Of a DNA stretch of 64,000 bases, positions 16,809-45,551 are shown piece by piece; the first letter of the stretch is position 1, and every line of letters begins with the position of its first letter. Source of the DNA: a virus (taxonomy: Duplodnaviria; Caudoviricetes); IMG/VR virus record IMGVR_UViG_3300033076_001518, positions 1,526 to 65,525 of that record. One strand, 5' to 3'. The notes under the pieces are model-generated. The model did no database searches. It saw only the letters and a list, made by a program, of their open reading frames with translations, and was not told the origin of the DNA. The translations under genes and the position numbers were made by a program.

Positions 16809-17020
16809 GCGAGCCGACGGATAGCGGACCAGTCCCTCTCACCGACGCGCAGATGGAGCGGATCGCCGAGAAAGCGGCCGCCAAGGCGGTGCAGAAGATG
16901 ACCGGCAAGATGTACGAGGAGGTTGGCCGCAGCGTCGTCTCCAAGGGGTTGACCGTGCTAGGCGTGGTTGCCGTGGCCGCGCTCTCGTACCTCTACAGCA
17001 AAGGTTTCATCAAGCTATGA
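16805..17020 (+). CDS. small membrane protein (one C-terminal TM helix)
   Basis: ATGA overlap; RIAEKAAAKAVQKM...GLTVLGVVAVAALSYLYSKG. Confidence 0.6.
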   Translation: MSEPTDSGPVPLTDAQMERIAEKAAAKAVQKMTGKMYEEVGRSVVSKGLTVLGVVAVAALSYLYSKGFIKL

Positions 17021-17988
17021 GCGGCGAAGGGCCGCTGGCCAAACTCCTCACCGCGCTCATCAACGGCGCGAGCGCGCAGAAGAAACTCGAGCGCGCCGTC
17101 GGAGAAGAGTTCTACCGCGCAGCGGACGACGTGCCGGACATGTTCCGTCGAGGCCGTCGCTACGGACAGTCGCGAGCTGATCTCGAGAATCAGTTCGGGG
17201 TTCAATTCCGCGACTATCCGGGTTCGACCAGCGTCACCGTGCCCGGCGCGGCGGGTAAGGCTTCGATGGACTACGTGATGAGTCCCGGGCCAAGCGACAC
17301 CGCCACTTTTCCGCGGTACCGGCCGCGGGTCATGTTCGATACGTCTATGCTCGCTCCTCCAGGCACCTCTAGCGGCGCGGGTGCGGGGCGCGGAGCCTAC
17401 GCAGCGATGTTCGGTACTTTGCTCGAGAATCCCGAGCTCGTCAACATGGTCGATTCGACGGGGCTCACTCGCCGTAACGAGCACCGGCGCAACCTCAACC
17501 AAGCCGCAGCGCTACTACGCGCTCCGGAGCTGAGCCGTCAGATCGCACTCGATCCATTCCAGTTCGCTCACCAACGCAGGGTCGATCCAGAGCAGTTCAT
17601 GAGGCGATCCCCCGTAGAACAGGTCGGAGCACTGCAGGCAGAGGGCGCGCTGCAGACGATCCGCCGCATGGACGAAACGGCGCACGCAGCAAAAGGCAAA
17701 GCAGGAGGAGAGGAATTCGCAGCAAAGCTGCAGGAAGCTCGGCGTCGGGCTTTCCGAAGCTCCGACCCGGCAGATTTCAGCGTGCTGGCTACGCTACTGA
17801 GAGAAGGCGAGAGCCTCGGCATCCCCAAGAGTCTTTACGACACCATTGGCGAGGGCGCCCTCCGCCGCGCCGCCTTGGTGAGCGACATCGTCGATGGGCG
17901 CCCCGGGGCGCGCGCGAACCTGTACTCAGGTCTGGAGTTCGCTCGCGGCGGCGGCGTTCGCAACGGCCGCGGCTTCTTCCGCCGCTAG
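17017..17988 (+). CDS. hypothetical late protein ending in an FARGG motif
   Basis: 323-aa ORF with ATGA coupling; last gene of the + strand arm. Confidence 0.6.
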   Translation: MSGEGPLAKLLTALINGASAQKKLERAVGEEFYRAADDVPDMFRRGRRYGQSRADLENQFGVQFRDYPGSTSVTVPGAAGKASMDYVMSPGPSDTATFPRYRPRVMFDTSMLAPPGTSSGAGAGRGAYAAMFGTLLENPELVNMVDSTGLTRRNEHRRNLNQAAALLRAPELSRQIALDPFQFAHQRRVDPEQFMRRSPVEQVGALQAEGALQTIRRMDETAHAAKGKAGGEEFAAKLQEARRRAFRSSDPADFSVLATLLREGESLGIPKSLYDTIGEGALRRAALVSDIVDGRPGARANLYSGLEFARGGGVRNGRGFFRR

Positions 17989-18798
17989 ACGACGCGCCAG
18001 CAGTCCGCTCGCCAGCCGCGCGACGCGGCCGGTCTCGGCGTGAAGTCGGTAGGTCTCCGCGCCGTTGTAGCCCCCCGCCAGGTTCCAGACGATCGGGGTG
18101 CGGGTGGTCATGGCGGTCAGGAAGACCATCTCGTCACGGTCGCGCCAGTCGTTGTCGGTGAGGTAGCCCACCCCGTACGGGTCGTTCTCGTGGGCGTCGG
18201 CGCCTGCCTGGTACAGGATCAGGTTCCACGGGCCGTCGCGCAGCGCGGCGTCGATCCGGTGGAACCAGGTCGTGCGGCTCATGCGCGTCACGTTGCGGAT
18301 GTACGCGCCGAGCCCCAGCCTCGCGATCACGTCGTCGGTGCCGTCGCCGTAGTGGCCGTCGCCGTCGATGATCAGCACGCGCCCCACGATCGGGCAGCCG
18401 AGCGCGACGAGGGCCGCCAGCACGAGCCCGTTGAACGTGCAGTAGCCGTGGCCGTCCGCGAAGCCTGCGTGATGGAACCCGCTGACGGGCGCCAGGATGG
18501 GGTCGCCCGGGTTCTTCAGCGCCAGCTCGGCCGCGGTGCGCATGGCGCCGTTGGCGGCCAGGACGTGCGCCAGCGTACGCTGGTCCTGGGTGCCGAACCC
18601 GTTGCGGCGCGTGCCGTTGAGGACGCTGTCGACGTAGTCCATGCTGTGCACGCTCACCAGCTCTTCGCGGAACGCGGGCGGGGCGAGGGCTTCCTCGTCG
18701 TCCGGGCCGAAGATGGCGTCGACGACGCGCTTCGGCTTCGACAGCGAGATGAATGCTTCGGGCATGGCAGCGAGCGCAGGGTTCCAGGTGAACTTCAC
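17926..18798 (-). CDS. histone deacetylase (HDAC/AcuC/APAH) family Zn-dependent deacetylase
   Basis: GTG 18798 with AGGAGG, overlapping the upstream stop; SGFHHA, GYCTFN, IIDGDGHYGDGT, AGADAHENDP and AGGY motifs in canonical order. Confidence 0.9.
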   Translation of the reverse strand: MKFTWNPALAAMPEAFISLSKPKRVVDAIFGPDDEEALAPPAFREELVSVHSMDYVDSVLNGTRRNGFGTQDQRTLAHVLAANGAMRTAAELALKNPGDPILAPVSGFHHAGFADGHGYCTFNGLVLAALVALGCPIVGRVLIIDGDGHYGDGTDDVIARLGLGAYIRNVTRMSRTTWFHRIDAALRDGPWNLILYQAGADAHENDPYGVGYLTDNDWRDRDEMVFLTAMTTRTPIVWNLAGGYNGAETYRLHAETGRVARLASGLLARRLAAEEAAAVANAAAASELQT

Positions 18799-19184
18799 GG
18801 GTAGACCTCCTTGATGAAGGCGTTCAGTATATCCCGGATTTCGGCAAGTTCGTCGACGCGCCCCCAGCAGTAAAGCGCGCCGAGGATGCGCTTTTCTGCG
18901 GACGTCAGCTGGGGCCGCGCGGCGATGTAGCGGGCGAGCGGCGTCGTGCCGTGACGGTGGCGCCCGTGCGGATGGTAGCGCCCCTGGTTCACGACCTCGA
19001 TGAGCTTCTCGAGGTAGTGGCTGGCCTTCTCCAAGTCCTGGCGCCCGGCCTTCTTGGCGTGGCGGTCCAGGTACTTGGTGAACTGCCCCTCGAGGTAACT
19101 GAGGTTCGCATCGACGACGAAGTCCCAGTGCTGGTACGGGGCCGCGTAGTGGGTACCGCCCACCTGGCGTTCGTTGGCGCTCAT
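18795..19184 (-). CDS. DUF3310/SaV-like nucleotide-modification-associated protein
   Basis: RQVGGTHY...QHWDF...KYLDRHAKKAGRQDLEKASHYL. Confidence 0.75.
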   Translation of the reverse strand: MSANERQVGGTHYAAPYQHWDFVVDANLSYLEGQFTKYLDRHAKKAGRQDLEKASHYLEKLIEVVNQGRYHPHGRHRHGTTPLARYIAARPQLTSAEKRILGALYCWGRVDELAEIRDILNAFIKEVYP

Positions 19185-19735
19185 TCCATCTCCCTGAGTT
19201 CGGCGAGGATCGCACGCGCTGCGCCGAGGTCGAAGTTCGGGCGGTCGTCGTGCAGCCGGGCCAGCTTGGCGAAAGCGTTGCCGGTGTAGGCAAGATAGTT
19301 TTCGAAGATGGGGTCTACCAGCTTGTTGCCCATGAGCCGCTCGCGCCGGCAGAAGAGCAGCCCTTCGAGCTTGTCGACGAAATCGGCCACCGCCGCCTCG
19401 AAGCCAGAAAGCGGCGGCGGGACGTAGTCGACACGTTCACGCAGCAGCTCGGCCTCGACGTTGTCGATGTTGCCCTGACTGTGCGCATCGAGTCTTCGCT
19501 TGAAGTTGCCCGGGATGTCGCCCGTGAACCGCTCGCCTGCATCATGGCCCAGCAGGTGGAGAAGAAGCGCGCCCGGCGGCTCGTCGCGGTAGAACGTCGT
19601 CGCGAGCCAGATGAGGTTGTAGACGTGCTGCGCCACGTCCTGACGGCGGATGAGCCCGCCGAGCGAGGTGTGGTAGCGAAGGGTCTCGCCGCAGCGCAGA
19701 CGGCCCTCGACGAGTGCTAGCGAAAGGCTGCCCAT
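19181..19735 (-). CDS. HD-domain deoxynucleotide hydrolase (YfbR-like)
   Basis: RYHT...QDVAQH...HDAGERFTGDIP...DKLEG; ATG 19735 just after the upstream stop. Confidence 0.8.
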   Translation of the reverse strand: MGSLSLALVEGRLRCGETLRYHTSLGGLIRRQDVAQHVYNLIWLATTFYRDEPPGALLLHLLGHDAGERFTGDIPGNFKRRLDAHSQGNIDNVEAELLRERVDYVPPPLSGFEAAVADFVDKLEGLLFCRRERLMGNKLVDPIFENYLAYTGNAFAKLARLHDDRPNFDLGAARAILAELREME

Positions 19736-19737
19736 GA

Positions 19738-20760
19738 TCAGCGCACCTCCGCCGTCGGCACGGACTTCTTCAGCCGGCGCTCGAGCCACTCGTAGCCCGC
19801 CGCGTGCCAGAGGTAGACGTCCGGCGCCAGCAGCTGCATCGCCTCCTCGGTCTTGCCGGCCTTGTGCAGCTTGTGCGCCACGAACATCGGCAACGCCACC
19901 TCGTTCAGGAACGGGAACCGCCAGAACGGCGGCTCCGGGTCCTCAGGGTCCTTGAGGAACATTTTGAGCGCGCGATCGAACGTGTCCCAGTCCCGGGGCT
20001 CCGTGAAGAGGGGCGGGTTCTCGAGCTGATGCGTCCGCGTCTTGGGTTCGTCGGCCCCGTTCATGAGCTTGCGAACGTCGTCCCGATCGATGTACGCGTG
20101 GTAGTTCCAGCTCACCTGGGTGAACGTGCCGACCGCCTTGCCAATCGCGCAAGCCAGGTACTCCTGGAGGAAAGTGAAGTGGACGACGTTGGCTCCGTAG
20201 GCGCCCCAGACGATGTCGTTGGACCGGCACATGACCATCAGGTCCAGCAGCGCGCCGTTCACCCGCACGTACACGTGGGTGTTGCAGGGGACGTCGCGCG
20301 AGAAGTTCGGGTTGCTCAACATGCCGGCCGAGAGGTCCTTGGCGCCGTCCCACATCGCGATCACCACGCGACGCGAGCTCGGGTTGTTGCGCAGCTCGGA
20401 GATGACGTCGTAGAGCTGATCATGACCGAAGTGGTACCGCCACCGGTAGCCGTAGGCCCCGTTGAGCGTCTGCCCGTCGTCGGAGAACTCGGAGAACCGC
20501 GGCACGAAGCGCGTCAGGAACTCGAGGTCGTTTCGCCCCACCAGCATCCACAACGCTTCGAACAGGTGGAAGAACGGGTTGGCATCGCGGAGCGGCGAGA
20601 GCGCGACTCGATTGCGAGGCGCCGGGTAGACGGTCGTGACGGGCTGAGGCGAGACGAGCACGGTGCCGTTGCGGCTGGACTCTTTCGCGCCGGTGCTACC
20701 GAGCAGAGAGAGTCCTTGACGCAGCGCGTCGTCGGGGTTGAGGGCAGTGATGTGGAACAT
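19738..20760 (-). CDS. thymidylate synthase-fold enzyme, probable dUMP hydroxymethylase
   Basis: SRRVVIAMWD, DVPCN (catalytic Cys), RSNDIVWGAYGAN (Asn at the dUMP-specificity position), NYHAY; adjacent to a 5hmU-kinase-type gene. Confidence 0.85.
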   Translation of the reverse strand: MFHITALNPDDALRQGLSLLGSTGAKESSRNGTVLVSPQPVTTVYPAPRNRVALSPLRDANPFFHLFEALWMLVGRNDLEFLTRFVPRFSEFSDDGQTLNGAYGYRWRYHFGHDQLYDVISELRNNPSSRRVVIAMWDGAKDLSAGMLSNPNFSRDVPCNTHVYVRVNGALLDLMVMCRSNDIVWGAYGANVVHFTFLQEYLACAIGKAVGTFTQVSWNYHAYIDRDDVRKLMNGADEPKTRTHQLENPPLFTEPRDWDTFDRALKMFLKDPEDPEPPFWRFPFLNEVALPMFVAHKLHKAGKTEEAMQLLAPDVYLWHAAGYEWLERRLKKSVPTAEVR

Positions 20761-21633
20761 TCATACTCCTGGGTAAGTGGCGCGGGGGCGGCCCTCGCCT
20801 AGTCTAGCGCGTTCGTACTTGTCGAATTCGCACAAAGAGTGCTCGATCTCGCGCATCTCCAGCGCGGGCTTGAAGGGCCACGTCGGAAACAGTTTCGCGT
20901 AGACCGCGCGCATGGCGTCCAGTGCTCGGCCGTCGCTCATGGCGTTGCGAACCGGCAGGCCCATGAGCCGATTCAACCCCCGCTTGGCGCCGGGCCCCGC
21001 GTGGGCCCACCCGCGGGCGTCTTGTAGCCACGGCACTTTCTGCCCGTAGCGCGTGTAGCGCGCGTCGCACACTACCTCGTAGGCAGTGAACCCGCCCCAT
21101 CCGTGGTACGGCAGGAGCGCGGCGTGCGCCTGCTGCATGCTGCCGTACTCGAACGCCTCGCGGACCTTCTTTCGGTCCTGCCACACGCTATCTAGCACGA
21201 GCTTCGTGGTGAAGAACGCCTTGTCTTTCGGGTCGTCGGGCTTCGTACCGTGCGCATTGAGCATGTACGCGCCCGTGTACAGCTTCTCGCCGCGGGCCTG
21301 CCGCGCCAGCATGATCTTGCGGATCTCGCGCCAGTCGTAGTTGCCGCCCACCCGGAACTTGGCGCTCTCAGCGTAGATCTCGGCCAGCGTTTCGGGCCAG
21401 TTGATCTGTCGCGCCATGCAGAGCCGGAACCAGAGATTCGGGCAGTCGGCGTAGGGCTCGCGGATGTTCTCCCGAATCCAGATCGTGACCGTGTCCAGCT
21501 CGCGGTAGACGTTGCAGAACCGGTAGCGCTGCAGGACCGGGTCATCGGTCCAGGGCTTCGCTTCTCCGGCGTCGCGCTTCAGGTAGATGTTGTGCCGCTT
21601 CATCATGAAGCGGCGGAGCGGGTCGATCTTCAT
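20761..21633 (-). CDS. 5-hmdU DNA kinase helical domain / aGPT-Pplase1-family protein
   Basis: PWTDDPVLQRYRFCNVYRELDTVT, GFTAYEVVCD, GPGAKRGL, IEHSLCEFDKY.R motifs; ATG 21633 overlaps the upstream stop. Confidence 0.85.
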   Translation of the reverse strand: MKIDPLRRFMMKRHNIYLKRDAGEAKPWTDDPVLQRYRFCNVYRELDTVTIWIRENIREPYADCPNLWFRLCMARQINWPETLAEIYAESAKFRVGGNYDWREIRKIMLARQARGEKLYTGAYMLNAHGTKPDDPKDKAFFTTKLVLDSVWQDRKKVREAFEYGSMQQAHAALLPYHGWGGFTAYEVVCDARYTRYGQKVPWLQDARGWAHAGPGAKRGLNRLMGLPVRNAMSDGRALDAMRAVYAKLFPTWPFKPALEMREIEHSLCEFDKYERARLGEGRPRATYPGV

Positions 21634-22343
21634 TTGACCGCCCTTTCGGCGACGGCCATCTGCTCCGGCGTGCCGACAGGGTGCCAGCCGTTCACTTCGA
21701 CGGCGCCGCAGCCGAGAGACAGAAACGAACTCATAGACCGCTCGGAGCCGCCGAGCAAAACGGACGCAGCACGAGAGCGGAAGTAGCCGAAGCTCGGAAA
21801 TCCGTAGATCCCAGTGCCGACCAGCCAACTCCCGAGAGAAGGCTCGTAGTTGAACCCGCGTTTCTCGTTCATGTCGAGCGCGGAGCCCTCGCACACTCGA
21901 GCACAGCAGAAACTCGTCGCCGACAGCCAGACCGGCTGCGGAGCCACCGTGAGGAACTGGTCCCCGATCGGCAGCTGCTCGATCCACCCCCGCTGATCCG
22001 GCGCGTAGTAGTTGTCGCAGTCCATGAAGACCACGGGCTCGTCGGGCGGGAGATGCGCGCCGGCCAGCAGCGCGCTCGCCGCGGGGCCGGGCTGCGTGAT
22101 GCTGACGGGGACCATGTAGTCTTCTTCGAAGTACGGGGCGTCTTGACGGGCGAATTTCGCGACTTCCGGGGTCACGACGAAGACGAGACGCTCCGGCTTC
22201 ATCTCGATTGCCAGCTCGGCGGTGTGATCGAGCAGCGTCTGGCCTCTGAACGTCAGCAGCGGCTTCGGCGTCGTTACGCCTGCAGCCGAGAACCGTTCGC
22301 CGCGCCCGGCGGCCAGGATGACGACGTTAAAGGCGCGTGGCAT
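21630..22343 (-). CDS. sugar-phosphate nucleotidyltransferase (NTP_transferase family)
   Basis: VILAAGRGERF...TPKPLL, VFMDCD, GIYGF, WHPVGTPE. Confidence 0.85.
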   Translation of the reverse strand: MPRAFNVVILAAGRGERFSAAGVTTPKPLLTFRGQTLLDHTAELAIEMKPERLVFVVTPEVAKFARQDAPYFEEDYMVPVSITQPGPAASALLAGAHLPPDEPVVFMDCDNYYAPDQRGWIEQLPIGDQFLTVAPQPVWLSATSFCCARVCEGSALDMNEKRGFNYEPSLGSWLVGTGIYGFPSFGYFRSRAASVLLGGSERSMSSFLSLGCGAVEVNGWHPVGTPEQMAVAERAVK

Positions 22344-23052
22344 AGCTCATGACCTTTTCGTAGAACTCGGTTTGGCGAGGGAAGAACGGCGGCTCCTTGG
22401 CGGCTACTCGCACCGCGTGCGACACGAGGTAGTAGCCAAGGAGCGCCAGATCCGGCCGGTACTCACGCATTAGCCGCTCGACCTCGCGCCAAAGCGCGCG
22501 CGAACGAGCGCCGTCGGTGTCGAATCCGAGTGCGCTGAACATCATCTTCGACAGATCGACTTCGAACTCCGGCGGCGCTGCGCGCGGGGAGAAATCGATG
22601 AGACGGACGCCATCGCGGGTCCAGACTGCGTTGGACAGCGTCGCGTCGCCATGAACGAAGGCGTTCTGCGAGATGGGCAGCCCCGCCATGCTCGCGTAGT
22701 GGCGCCCGAGCGCCGACAGGAGCGAGGTGCGGAGCCCGTTGCGGACTTCGGAGCGCTCCATCTGCGTTGTCACGTAGCGATGGTACGCCTCCCGCGTGCA
22801 GGCGGCCCGCGGCGAGTTCTCGCGCCAGAGCCGCTCGAAGCAGTGAGCGAAGTCGGTGATCGAGCCGAGCGGGATGGGCGCCATCGCCAGCGGCATCGCG
22901 AAGCTCGTCCGCGACATCGGCTCCACCGCCATGGCAACGGTAGCCGGCGCGGCCACCATGATGCGGTACTGCGCCTCGCACTCGGCCACGGACTCGAACG
23001 TCTTCAGCACGCTCAGTCGCGCGCCGCTGGGTCTCTTCTCACTGCTGCTCAT
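22327..23052 (-). CDS. APH / choline-kinase-fold phosphotransferase
   Basis: HGDATLSN catalytic loop, LIDF metal-binding motif, DLSKM. Confidence 0.75.
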   Translation of the reverse strand: MSSSEKRPSGARLSVLKTFESVAECEAQYRIMVAAPATVAMAVEPMSRTSFAMPLAMAPIPLGSITDFAHCFERLWRENSPRAACTREAYHRYVTTQMERSEVRNGLRTSLLSALGRHYASMAGLPISQNAFVHGDATLSNAVWTRDGVRLIDFSPRAAPPEFEVDLSKMMFSALGFDTDGARSRALWREVERLMREYRPDLALLGYYLVSHAVRVAAKEPPFFPRQTEFYEKVMSYATRL

Positions 23053-23848
23053 TGATGCCGCTCTCCAGCGCTTTCTTCCACGAAACGACCACCTCCTTGC
23101 GAGGGGTGCCCTTGTAGTTCTTGTCGACCACGCGCACGAAGCCAGGGTGAAGCGCGGCGAGCTTGTGCGCGGCGGCGTCGCTGGCGGAGACCGTTCTCTC
23201 GCCGCTACAGCCGCCGGGAGCGCCGTAGGCCCCCGGGGCGACGCACCAGTCGTAGCACTGAATGCTCTCTTGACCGGCGCGCAGCAGCGTGAGCGCCATG
23301 TGGAAGTCCTCGCGGAAAGCGACAGCGTTGAACTTGAACTTCATCTTCACCAGCTCTTTCCGCCGGTAGCCGAAGGCGTGCATGAGCCGATTGGCGCCGC
23401 GCTTCCAGTCGAGAGGCTCCAGGTCATTGCCGAAGCGGCTGCTGATGCCGACGGACGAATGGTCGGAGTTCAGCCCGAACTCCAGCTCTTCGAACAGCCG
23501 CTGGACGCCTCCGTCCGTCACGTAGTCGAGGCTCAGCGTCTTGTGCCCAGGGCGGGCCTTCCAGCGCCCGTCGCGGTAGTCGCGGTAGTGCATCTCGCAC
23601 CGCTTGTAGAAGACCATGTCGTCGTCCAGCATGAAGACGTCGTCCTTGACGTTCTCCAGAATCCACTGGCGTTTGTCGGCGATGGTCTTGACCGGCGCGT
23701 TCTTCACGTGCCGATGGGTCCGCCGCAGAGCTTCGTGCTCGGCTGCGTCAGACGTGATGAGAAGAACCTCCCGGCGCAGCGCGTCCGGGAGGGCGGCCAG
23801 AGTCGTCTGCTTGGCGACTCGACCGTAGGTTGGGATGACAATCCGCAC
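23039..23848 (-). CDS. GT-A fold glycosyltransferase (TET-associated TAGT/GREB1-like)
   Basis: IVIPTYGR, KRQWI, FMLDDD (DxD), REDFHMALTLL, GGCSGER. Confidence 0.8.
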   Translation of the reverse strand: MRIVIPTYGRVAKQTTLAALPDALRREVLLITSDAAEHEALRRTHRHVKNAPVKTIADKRQWILENVKDDVFMLDDDMVFYKRCEMHYRDYRDGRWKARPGHKTLSLDYVTDGGVQRLFEELEFGLNSDHSSVGISSRFGNDLEPLDWKRGANRLMHAFGYRRKELVKMKFKFNAVAFREDFHMALTLLRAGQESIQCYDWCVAPGAYGAPGGCSGERTVSASDAAAHKLAALHPGFVRVVDKNYKGTPRKEVVVSWKKALESGINEQQ

Positions 23849-23891: not shown

Positions 23892-24596
23892 CTACTTGAC
23901 TTCGATGAACTCCATCTTGACGTCCCAGTTCACGTCGGCCCGGGTGCCGCCGGCCGCGATGTACTCGTCGACGGTCATGCCGTTCTTGTACAGCGCGAAG
24001 CGGGTCGCGGCGGCCGCACGCTTCGGGTTCTCCTTGACGAGGATCTTGATCTTGGCCGAGCCGTCGATGTTCGGCTTGCGGCCGCGCGTGCCGGCCTCCT
24101 CGGCGGCGGGGGCCTTCTTGGCGGCGGGCTTGTCGGCGGACTTCTTCGCGGCGGGCTTGTCGGCCGCCTTCTTCGCGGGGGTTGCGGCCTTCTTGGCCGC
24201 GGAGGTCTTGGCGGATGCCATGATGTCGTCTTCTCCTGGTTCGGTGACGGGGTTGGTGGGGGTAGACGCTGGAATGTCGACGTCCGGCAGCTCGACCTTG
24301 CGATCGAACTTGCCGTCCGCGATTCGGCCGAGTAGCGTACGAACCTCGGCTGAAACTTTGGGTGAGTAGCCGTCCTCGACGCTCAGGTAGCGCTGGGCGG
24401 CACGGCCGGGGGCGTAGTCGGTCTTCTCGAAGCGGCGGAAGAACGCGTCCTGCGACTCGCGCTGAACGACGAGCTCGACGGGCGAGTACGCCACGAAGCG
24501 CACGTACTTGCGGTCGACGCCGAGCAGGATGCAGCTGTGGCGACCCGCGTCGCGGTAGACGGCGCACTCGTCTTTGTGAACGTCGAATTTGTTCAC
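23892..24596 (-). CDS. protein with Lys/Ala-rich histone-H1-like linker and conserved C-terminal domain (paralogue of 44798-45430)
   Basis: GTG 24596 overlaps the upstream stop; AAKKAATPAKKAADKPAAKK followed by NPKR...RFALYKNGMTVDEYIAAGG. Confidence 0.7.
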   Translation of the reverse strand: MNKFDVHKDECAVYRDAGRHSCILLGVDRKYVRFVAYSPVELVVQRESQDAFFRRFEKTDYAPGRAAQRYLSVEDGYSPKVSAEVRTLLGRIADGKFDRKVELPDVDIPASTPTNPVTEPGEDDIMASAKTSAAKKAATPAKKAADKPAAKKSADKPAAKKAPAAEEAGTRGRKPNIDGSAKIKILVKENPKRAAAATRFALYKNGMTVDEYIAAGGTRADVNWDVKMEFIEVK

Positions 24597-44493: not shown

Positions 44494-44801
44494 TGCTCGC
44501 CACCTCCATCTTCCAGAGTGAACAGGTACTCGTCGCGGATCGCGGTCAGGGTCGGCGCGCCCTCGACGCTCCACGCCTCGGGCTTGACCTTCGGGTCCAG
44601 CGTCACCGGCACCACGTAGGTGGCGTCCGCGCCGCGGTACACGTGCAGCACCTGGGCCCCCTCCGCAGGGCGGAGCCCGGTGCCGATCTGCTGCGGGGCG
44701 ACGGTCGCGACCAGCGAGGTCAGCTCGCGCTGGCTCGCCGGGTCCGTGACGATGAACTCCCGCACGCGCACCCCGGTGTCGTAGGGGCTGCGCGCGCTCA
44801 C
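44490..44801 (-). CDS. hypothetical protein
   Basis: GTGA coupling; strong codon bias. Confidence 0.55.
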   Translation of the reverse strand: MSARSPYDTGVRVREFIVTDPASQRELTSLVATVAPQQIGTGLRPAEGAQVLHVYRGADATYVVPVTLDPKVKPEAWSVEGAPTLTAIRDEYLFTLEDGGGEQ

Positions 44802-45430
44802 TTCGGCTCCGCGGTCTTGATCCAGCCCATCTTCTGGTCCCACACCACGTCGCGGCGCTGGCCGCCCGCGGCGATGTAGGCGGCGACGGTCATGCCGTTG
44901 CGGTAGAGCGCGTAGCGGTCGGCCGCGGTGCCGCGCTTGGGGTTGTCGCCCTTGTGCACCACCGTGATGATCGCGTCCTCGGTGAAGCTGGCGCGACCAC
45001 CGCCGGCCTTCTTGGGCGCGGCGGGCTTGGCGCTCTTCGCGGCGGGCTTGGCGCTCTTCGCGGCGGGCTTGGCGGTCGACGGGTGAGCGCCCTGCGACGC
45101 GAGGACGCGCGCCATGTGCTCGGCGGCGGAGGGCGTCGCGGGCTTCTTGACCGTGAGCATGTCGCCGCTGCCGCCCAGGTTGAAAGCGAGCTTCCCGGCA
45201 GGCTTCTCGGCCTTCTTGATCAGGGCCTCGACACGCGGGTTGCCCGCGGGGTCCTTCGGCTCGCCCTCGGCCTTCGCGGCGATCAGCGCGGTGGCGCGCT
45301 CGACGCCCTTGGCGCGGGTCTCGAACTTCTTGATCGGGGGCTTGCCGCTGTGCTCGTTGACGAACGCCACGAGCTCCGCCATCGACGCGGCGGCGACTTC
45401 GACCTTGGTGGACTTGAGAGTCAGGGACAT
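44798..45430 (-). CDS. Lys/Ala-rich histone-like protein (paralogue of 23892-24596)
   Basis: AKPAAKSAKPAAKSAKPAAPKK, then NPKRGTAADRYALYRNGMTVAAYIAAGG. Confidence 0.7.
   Translation of the reverse strand: MSLTLKSTKVEVAAASMAELVAFVNEHSGKPPIKKFETRAKGVERATALIAAKAEGEPKDPAGNPRVEALIKKAEKPAGKLAFNLGGSGDMLTVKKPATPSAAEHMARVLASQGAHPSTAKPAAKSAKPAAKSAKPAAPKKAGGGRASFTEDAIITVVHKGDNPKRGTAADRYALYRNGMTVAAYIAAGGQRRDVVWDQKMGWIKTAEPK
45018..45074 (-). repeat. 21-nt tandem repeat (about 2.7 copies) encoding KSAKPAA
   Basis: gcggcgggcttggcgctcttc twice, plus a partial third copy. Confidence 0.85.
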
Positions 45431-45489
45431 GATGCTGGGGCCTCGCTCGCCCGGGACAGAGGGGTAGTTGAGTTCTCTGTCGCTGGCGC

Positions 45490-45551
45490 AATTATGCTCC
45501 ATCTGCAGGATCTGCGGGAAATCCCTACTGATTTGCAGGGTTTTACGGCAG
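45490..45551 (-). promoter_or_regulatory. phage promoter cassette, copy C (more diverged)
   Basis: Minus strand CTGCCGTAAAACCCTG-N5-CAGTAGGGATT-TCCCGC-N17-CATAAT. Confidence 0.6.

Follow-up and report, generated by a model that had tools for sequence, protein, structure and literature searches.

The window analysed here is a stretch of 64,000 nucleotides from a virus of the Caudoviricetes, covering nearly the whole of a 65.5-kb IMG/VR record (IMGVR_UViG_3300033076_001518, positions 1,526 to 65,525) that has direct terminal repeats and is rated 100% complete. Its minus strand carries an operon that encodes, in this order, an SNF2 helicase, a Lys/Ala-rich protein, a TAGT-type glycosyltransferase, a kinase-like protein, a nucleotidyltransferase, a 5-hydroxymethyldeoxyuridine (5-hmdU) DNA kinase (HMUDK), a thymidylate synthase (TS)-fold enzyme, an HD-domain hydrolase, a DUF3310-type protein and a member of the histone deacetylase (HDAC) family. 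This operon is a thymidine-hypermodification cluster. Its last gene (17926-18798, minus strand, GTG start) encodes a protein of 290 amino acids belonging to Pfam family PF00850, of the class IV or HDAC11-like type. Sequence comparisons show this protein to be a predicted zinc amidohydrolase of the HDAC family in which all catalytic residues are intact. Furthermore, we show that it is a constant member of a nucleotide-pool and replication module in a lineage of uncultured podophages that replace a canonical base, being inherited along with an HD hydrolase and a small protein, whereas the surrounding genes, which determine the DNA chemistry, vary.

The HDAC gene is genuine, has the right limits and ends its operon, because its ribosome-binding sequence, its overlap with the upstream gene, the starts of its homologues and its overlap with a convergent gene all agree. 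A GGAGG sequence (18806-18810) lies 7 nt upstream of the GTG codon (18796-18798), which overlaps the TGA stop codon of the upstream gene (18795-18797) as GTGA; together they form a translation-coupling junction (18795-18810, minus strand). The frame of the gene runs open upstream as far as a TTG at 19293, and homologues align only from the GTG at 18798 onwards, their sequences opening with MK.xWNP. At the other end, the operon stops at a convergent plus-strand gene that closes the structural block (17017-17988), the two 3' ends overlapping by 63 nt (17926-17988). Convergent overlaps of 114-138 nt are found at the equivalent site in two relatives, L083 and L084. The plus-strand translation of 17926-18798, for which the initial annotation gave no strand, contains many stops, the minus strand having a single open frame of 290 amino acids, and comparison with an 80%-identical homologue (L082) gives a dN/dS of 0.33. 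Hence, the initial annotation, made from the letters of the sequence, was right to describe the gene as translationally coupled and last in its operon.

All the other genes of the operon considered here also lie on the minus strand. The gene directly upstream encodes the DUF3310-type protein (18795-19184; 129 amino acids), which matches phrog_5839 and, more weakly, phage 'nucleotide kinase' PHROGs, and which is the constant gene at this position in the 5-hydroxymethyluracil (5hmU) clade of relatives. It is preceded by the gene of the HD-domain hydrolase (19181-19735), a YfbR-like or DatZ-like protein that falls in one BLAST cluster with the DatZ-like HD protein of phages encoding PurZ; its likely start is the ATG at 19735, after a GGAGG, in a reading frame that is open to 19789. 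Further upstream are the divergent TS-fold enzyme (19738-20760), a presumed dUMP hydroxymethylase, and HMUDK (20761-21633; helical domain PF18723; likely start ATG 21633). The kinase and a TS-like hydroxymethylase are the defining genes of the known thymidine hypermodification clusters (Lee et al. 2018/2022; PaMx11, M6, ViI and phiW-14 types), and the modification-operon setting proposed initially is thus confirmed.

The next three genes form the variable tailoring set of the operon: a sugar-phosphate nucleotidyltransferase (21630-22343; NTP_transf_3/NTP_transferase), a kinase-like protein with a weak APH/Bud32-type match (22327-23052) and the TAGT-type glycosyltransferase (23039-23848; PF20691, phrog_842). 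This trio (21630-23848) resembles phage kinase/nucleotidyltransferase pairs, one of which has been discussed for arabinose activation (PMC13326640). By analogy, the trio suggests that a phage-made nucleoside diphosphate sugar could be transferred to the hydroxymethyl base. Moreover, the kinase and nucleotidyltransferase borne by the phage suggest that the activated sugar is an unusual one and not host UDP-N-acetylglucosamine (UDP-GlcNAc).

The HDAC-family protein contains the motifs GFHH (residues 107-110), GYCTFN (118-123), DGDGHYGDGT (145-154), AGAD (198-201), DP (206-207) and GGY (242-244). These are all the hallmarks of the HDAC/AcuC/acetylpolyamine amidohydrolase (APAH) family that had been read in it initially, and the enzyme is intact, with a PF00850 match at E 9e-26 (91.3 bits for a cut-off of 27.9) and complete catalytic and metal-binding residues. 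Alignment to HdaH of Vibrio cholerae (VcHdaH) identifies D147, H149 and D201 as the Zn ligands, H109-H110 as the His dyad and Y244 as the catalytic Tyr. Seven residues (H109, H110, D145, D147, H149, D201 and Y244) are unchanged in 34 relatives and throughout a comparison of 166 sequences from phages and bacteria; G107, F108, C120, A241, G242 and G243 are also invariant or nearly so among these 166 sequences. The protein has no family in PHROGs, NCBIfam or PADLOC.

An AlphaFold2 model built from 34 homologues (mean predicted local distance difference test, pLDDT, 96.8; predicted template modelling score 0.93) has the HDAC fold, an outcome whose absence had been proposed as grounds for rejecting the assignment. 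Foldseek retrieved 463 chains of the PDB at E<=0.001, and among the matches listed all are HDAC, APAH or HDLP. The first is VcHdaH (9gky/9gkv; E 2e-17, TM 0.81), followed by HDAC11 of Leptospira (9gz5; rank 5, E 4.8e-15) and a Burkholderia protein (5ji5), with HDAC8 and APAH lower. The alignment of a family profile with VcHdaH extends from one end to the other (residues 38-266, E 6.9e-33), and the same structures (9gkv/9gky, 9gz5, 5ji5 and 9rje) head the sequence searches and the fold searches alike.

These comparisons place the phage enzyme in the class IV (HDAC11/VcHdaH-like) branch. In the classification of Graf et al. 2024 (PMC11532494), VcHdaH represents cluster 5b and HDAC11 cluster 5f, which together make up class IV. 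According to these authors, the RPP motif is replaced in class IV by SGGYHH (VcHdaH) or GGGFHH (HDAC11), a small residue precedes GGY, and both changes are linked to long-chain deacylase activity, VcHdaH being reported as a selective lysine de-decanoylase. The class IV foot-pocket signature is present in the phage protein as SGFHH (106-110) and AGGY (241-244). The phage protein and VcHdaH (9GKV/9GKY) have in common the Zn ligands, the His dyad, the catalytic Tyr and a single domain of about 300 amino acids. However, they are only 22-23% identical, the phage protein is 28 amino acids shorter, it has GYCTFNG where VcHdaH has GFCLFND and, unlike VcHdaH, it is viral and encoded within a nucleotide-metabolism operon. 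Human HDAC11 and Leptospira HDAC11 (9GZ5), which are class IV fatty-acyl lysine deacylases, share with it the GGFHH-type motif and the small residue before GGY, but they are about 20% identical to it and belong to a eukaryotic or cellular context.

Other members of PF00850, such as APAH and HDAC10, act on polyamines, and the initial annotation had proposed that the enzyme liberates polyamines. It could be an acetylpolyamine or other small-molecule amidohydrolase that frees putrescine or spermidine for DNA condensation, for packaging or for use as a substrate. The fold and the catalytic residues are indeed common to the phage enzyme, APAH of M. ramosa (3Q9B) and HDAC10, APAH structures are retrieved by Foldseek at E ~1e-12, and a general role in DNA handling would suit a distribution that is independent of DNA chemistry. 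However, APAH ranks under the class IV lysine deacylases (TM 0.69, rmsd 5.1 in Foldseek), which are the nearest relatives. Furthermore, the phage protein is about 50 amino acids shorter than APAH (341), and, judged by length alone, an extended L2 dimerisation loop would be hard to accommodate. Preference for polyamines goes with a particular gatekeeper motif, PEG in HDAC10 and PIS in bacterial APAH (PMC11532494). In the phage protein the residues after the third Zn ligand are D206-P207-Y208-G209, matching neither motif. Across the family, 77 sequences have Tyr as the gatekeeper, 85 have Leu and none has Glu or Ile; the phage clades read PYG and the bacterial clade PLG. A polyamine substrate is thus unsupported by the specificity motif and appears unlikely.

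Relatives were sought among 5.8 billion proteins, which gave 2,782 matches, the best ones on contigs of 44-68 kb, and by an exhaustive search that yielded 209 representatives at E<=1e-30. In IMG/VR, relatives turned out to be encoded on at least 196 viral contigs, 80 of which were retrieved. Counts of records rest, wherever possible, on tblastn, hidden Markov model (HMM) or Pfam searches, and the tallies of families cover 50 HDAC-bearing phage records, 17 of them complete. A link to 7-deazaguanine received no support from these 50 records, in which QueC gave only two marginal matches, both in jumbo phages. The window operon is matched gene for gene in L082 (HDAC 80% identical) and L083 (56%), which retain the TAGT, kinase-like and nucleotidyltransferase set. 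In three more distant relatives (L084, L085 and L086; 44-54%), the block of HMUDK, TS, HD, small protein and HDAC is kept, and the interval between SNF2 and HMUDK encodes an amino-acid:DNA transferase (ADDT, PF18724), a DAO-type oxidase and an AAA_33 kinase, with an extra gene that encodes a GNAT acetyltransferase in L085 and L086 and a low-molecular-weight phosphatase (LMWPc) in L084. The swapped regions lie at L084:2568-6187, L085:3543-6228 and L086:1356-5905. The tailoring module is therefore a swappable cassette between SNF2 and HMUDK. The set carried by L084-L086, with ADDT, DAO and, in L085 and L086, GNAT as in known thymidine hypermodification clusters, comprises the families expected for aminomethyl-dU or acetylaminomethyl-dU chemistry. 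Five other relatives (L004-L008) have a TS-like gene beside the HDAC gene, and HMUDK is absent from them. In this clade, the gene between TS and HDAC (for instance L008:9301-9855) has HAE...PCxxC motifs of the dCMP/cytidine-deaminase type, as read from its sequence only.

This pattern bears on another role put forward initially, the deacetylation of an N-acetylated base or sugar. The enzyme would then tailor the hypermodified thymine itself, taking the acetyl group off an N-acetylated sugar or aminomethyl adduct of the 5hmU-derived base and thereby baring an amine on the DNA. Its gene is, after all, the coupled last gene of an operon encoding a TS-like hydroxymethylase, 5-HMUDK, TAGT, the kinase-like protein and the nucleotidyltransferase, and the GNAT genes in the operons of L085 and L086 fit a PaMx11-type acetylaminomethyl chemistry. 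However, the HDAC gene persists unaltered when the tailoring set is exchanged (L082-L086), it is present where HMUDK is absent (L004-L008), in 49 PurZ-type loci with no 5hmU genes and no TS-like gene, and in hundreds of bacterial genomes. Moreover, no GNAT acetyltransferase (PF00583) was found in the window genome, and the kinase and nucleotidyltransferase carried by the phage itself point to an unusual sugar and not to host UDP-GlcNAc. To our knowledge, no member of PF00850 acts on nucleic acid. PF18723 (HMUDK) occurs in 3 of the 50 HDAC-bearing records, and PF00303 (TS) in 12, as seven divergent copies beside the HDAC gene and five canonical ThyA in jumbo phages. The HDAC gene thus co-distributes neither with one tailoring chemistry nor with 5-HMUDK. 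The homologues are largely distributed independently of modification clusters, an outcome that the initial annotation itself had named as refuting the DNA-tailoring role, and this tells against that role. We consider this role distinctly unlikely, somewhat more so than a polyamine substrate, and the HDAC gene gives no basis for predicting a de-N-acetylated amino-sugar thymidine in the window phage.

The largest group of phage relatives, 49 IMG/VR loci from uncultured phages of about 56-59 kb, has a co-directional block that encodes PolA, PurZ, a MazZ-like pyrophosphohydrolase, a small protein, a DatZ-like HD hydrolase, a zinc ribbon protein, the HDAC-family enzyme and a protein of 395-419 amino acids (represented by L045:5415-11876). 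PurZ (PF00709) matches phrog_1211 at E 2e-84 and the HD hydrolase phrog_7076 at E 1e-26, and the block is a 2-aminoadenine (Z-genome) gene set. PF00709 (PurZ/PurA) is found in 27 of the 50 phage records and in 12 of the 17 complete ones. Our literature search did not find an HDAC-family gene beside a Z-genome gene set.

In this clade, HDAC is followed by a translationally coupled gene that overlaps its end (L045:10689-11876). The partner protein has no match in Pfam, PHROG, PADLOC or NCBIfam, and Foldseek gave nothing at E<=0.001. When its model (pLDDT 73) was compared with 48,161 chains by VIA-align, residues 45-245 matched almost only GNAT-fold acyltransferases (GNA1 at Z 6.2 and HAT1 at Z 5.9, then NatD, Elp3, N-myristoyltransferase and AtaT), with Z values that lie under the trust level for any single match. 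From this modelled fold, the HDAC-family enzyme and its partner in PurZ phages are a possible deacylase/acyltransferase pair. No homologue of the partner was found in the window by tblastn or HMM search.

In other phages the setting changes again. The HDAC gene lies between genes for RNR and ThyX, Tmk and MT-A70 in L018, L055 and L058, and after the tail sheath and tail tube genes in L049, L053 and L054. For the remaining phage loci, a Pfam tally covering 61 neighbours comprises Tmk, MT-A70, RNR, ThyX, NT5C, RecA, exonuclease, DNA methylase and structural genes. Hence, the HDAC gene tracks the nucleotide-pool module and not the thymine adduct, because HMUDK, TS, HD, the small protein and HDAC stay constant while the tailoring genes are swapped, and because it is also found beside PurZ, MazZ and DatZ or beside RNR, ThyX and Tmk.

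The third role proposed initially was the deacetylation of lysines on host proteins or on Lys-rich proteins of the phage itself. The window encodes two Lys/Ala-rich, H1-like paralogues with AKKAA/KPAAKK repeats, one in the HDAC operon (23892-24596; likely start GTG 24596) and one elsewhere on the minus strand (44798-45502). Their Lys contents are 9.8% and 11.1%, versus a background of 3.5%, and they share a conserved C-terminal domain of about 50 amino acids (NPKR...ALY.NGMTV..YIAAGG.R.DV.WD.KM) that has no family match. An enzyme dedicated to these proteins would keep their tails unacetylated for binding of phage DNA. The location of one paralogue within the operon and the presence of homologues of this copy in L002, L003 and L007 are in line with such a role. 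However, the shared domain was found in only one of the 50 HDAC-bearing records and in none of the 17 complete ones, in a search whose 55-residue query has limited sensitivity. Because the HDAC gene is kept without them, the Lys-rich proteins cannot be the general substrate of the family, though they may be substrates in the window phage. A dedicated eraser of H1-like proteins is thus highly improbable, the least probable of the roles considered. Of the initial proposal, the part concerning the phage's own Lys-rich proteins is weak, and protein lysine deacylation in general is its most likely part.

Relatives that are 37-46% identical are encoded at 363 or more loci in bacterial and archaeal genomes, the bacterial ones mostly from Burkholderiales, Lysobacterales and Myxococcota. 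In a maximum-likelihood tree of 116 sequences, obtained with a quick method and rooted at the midpoint only, the 5hmU clades and the PurZ clade are jointly split from a large bacterial clade (SH-aLRT 99), and the copies from jumbo and other phages are scattered inside the bacterial clade. The bacterial neighbourhoods are not conserved except for a WYL-domain regulator, which is encoded within 8 kb in 17 of 80 bacterial loci and immediately adjoins the HDAC gene in at least six. L133, L156, L157 and L159 are among the WYL-linked loci. In Deefgea chitinilytica (L167:5573-8894), a WYL-WCX-SIR2 fusion and a 151-amino-acid protein precede the HDAC-family enzyme. In Rhodoferax antarcticus (L168:5869-8903), the HDAC gene follows those of a BrxR-type WYL regulator and a TY-Chap protein and is surrounded by genes for a transposase, an ERCC4 nuclease, PLD and a helicase, the whole resembling a defence island.

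These neighbourhoods raise the possibility that the phage enzyme belongs to a conflict system. It would be the counterpart of a bacterial deacylase found in WYL-regulated defence or stress islands, and the phage would use it to undo or pre-empt an acylation-based response of the host. The frequency of WYL regulators, the gene arrangements of Deefgea and Rhodoferax and the nesting of jumbo-phage copies in the bacterial clade all speak for this role. Against it, the HDAC-family proteins have no PADLOC match, the bacterial neighbourhoods are unconserved apart from WYL, and the podophage clades are separate from the bacterial one. Moreover, we know of no acylation-based defence. We therefore hold it to be improbable, about as much as a polyamine substrate.

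Lysine deacylation is the best remaining reading and, because of the class IV likeness, the best-supported chemistry by comparison with characterised enzymes. We give about an even chance to the proposal that the enzyme hydrolyses an N-acyl amide on a protein lysine and does not tailor a thymine adduct. During infection, it would act on the lysine side chain of a host or phage protein, with the Zn ion held by D147, H149 and D201 as is usual in the family, the H109-H110 dyad serving as general acid/base and Y244 polarising the carbonyl; the thymine adduct would be left as it is. Since the class IV motifs that open the foot pocket are present, the acyl group may be longer than acetyl.

Several points weigh against this proposal. 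The class IV likeness consists of 22-23% identity and two motifs. In addition, because the gatekeeper is Tyr in the phage clades and Leu in the bacterial clade, the specificity of the phage enzyme may differ from that of every characterised enzyme. The co-inheritance could be mere synteny kept within one viral lineage and, since the 5hmU and PurZ clades are sisters, it reflects few independent events. Finally, the HDAC gene is found repeatedly inside nucleotide and DNA-modification modules, and this placement could mean that the substrate is a small molecule or a DNA-linked group common to such phages.

A broader proposal, which we regard as doubtful though a little less so than the alternatives to lysine deacylation, is that the enzyme is a working accessory of base-replacement pathways generally and not a passenger. 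It would strip an acyl mark from an enzyme or DNA-binding protein, of the host or of the phage, that limits how far the deoxynucleoside triphosphate (dNTP) pool can be re-routed or non-canonical DNA replicated. Together with its GNAT-fold-like partner in the Z-genome clade, it would form an eraser/writer module, and the WYL-linked bacterial homologues would represent the cellular side of the conflict.

Zinc-dependent enzymes of the HDAC family are hardly known in phages. The family of the window enzyme is also widespread among Proteobacteria and Myxococcota, where its genes are often neighbours of WYL regulators. A tblastn search of 50,697 GenBank phage records gave matches only in huge uncultured phages and in one gene of a Rhodococcus phage; cultured phages of the PaMx11 type gave no tblastn match to the HDAC protein. 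These cases, gp202 of Rhodococcus phage E3 ('putative histone deacetylase protein') and open reading frames of huge phages (LR756501-LR756511), indicate that PF00850 genes do occur in phages. However, their similarity is weak or partial (26-44% identity over 22-84% coverage), and they come from other types of phages, of 142 kb to 735 kb. In BFVD, the full-length matches at E <= 0.001 are only from giant eukaryotic viruses, for instance Yasminevirus and Catovirus. Our literature search found no link between an HDAC-family deacetylase and thymidine hypermodification or 5hmU clusters, and nothing relevant tying HDAC to PurZ, anti-defence or WYL, or Hist_deacetyl to phages. The polysaccharide deacetylase of the Carin-5 paper belongs to a different family. 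The enzyme thus belongs to a known family and is found in an unusual place, as part of a compact class IV-like clade that is conserved in a lineage of metagenomic podophages whose members, judged from their gene sets, replace thymine by 5hmU derivatives or adenine by 2-aminoadenine.

Should the enzyme deacylate proteins in the course of infection, this activity would represent a phage takeover or counter-defence function of a new kind and would give an experimental handle on lysine acylation in the conflict between phages and their hosts. The repeated placement of the gene in dNTP-pool modules of base-replacing phages, its possible GNAT-like partner and its WYL-linked bacterial relatives make this family worth experiment.

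When the operon was compared with GenBank phages by megablast, nothing matched. Outside the operon, the window encodes an SU10-type adaptor, virion proteins, a DNA-ejection protein, terminase, portal, primase and helicase. Its family-A DNA polymerase shares about 42% identity with the enzymes of Stenotrophomonas phage AXL3 and Pseudoxanthomonas phage PW916, which suggests Xanthomonadales or Burkholderiales as candidate hosts. In L083, the relative whose HDAC-family protein is 56% identical, a gene of the Acb2/Tad1-hairpin family (PF24729; L083:72-599) lies upstream of the shared operon.

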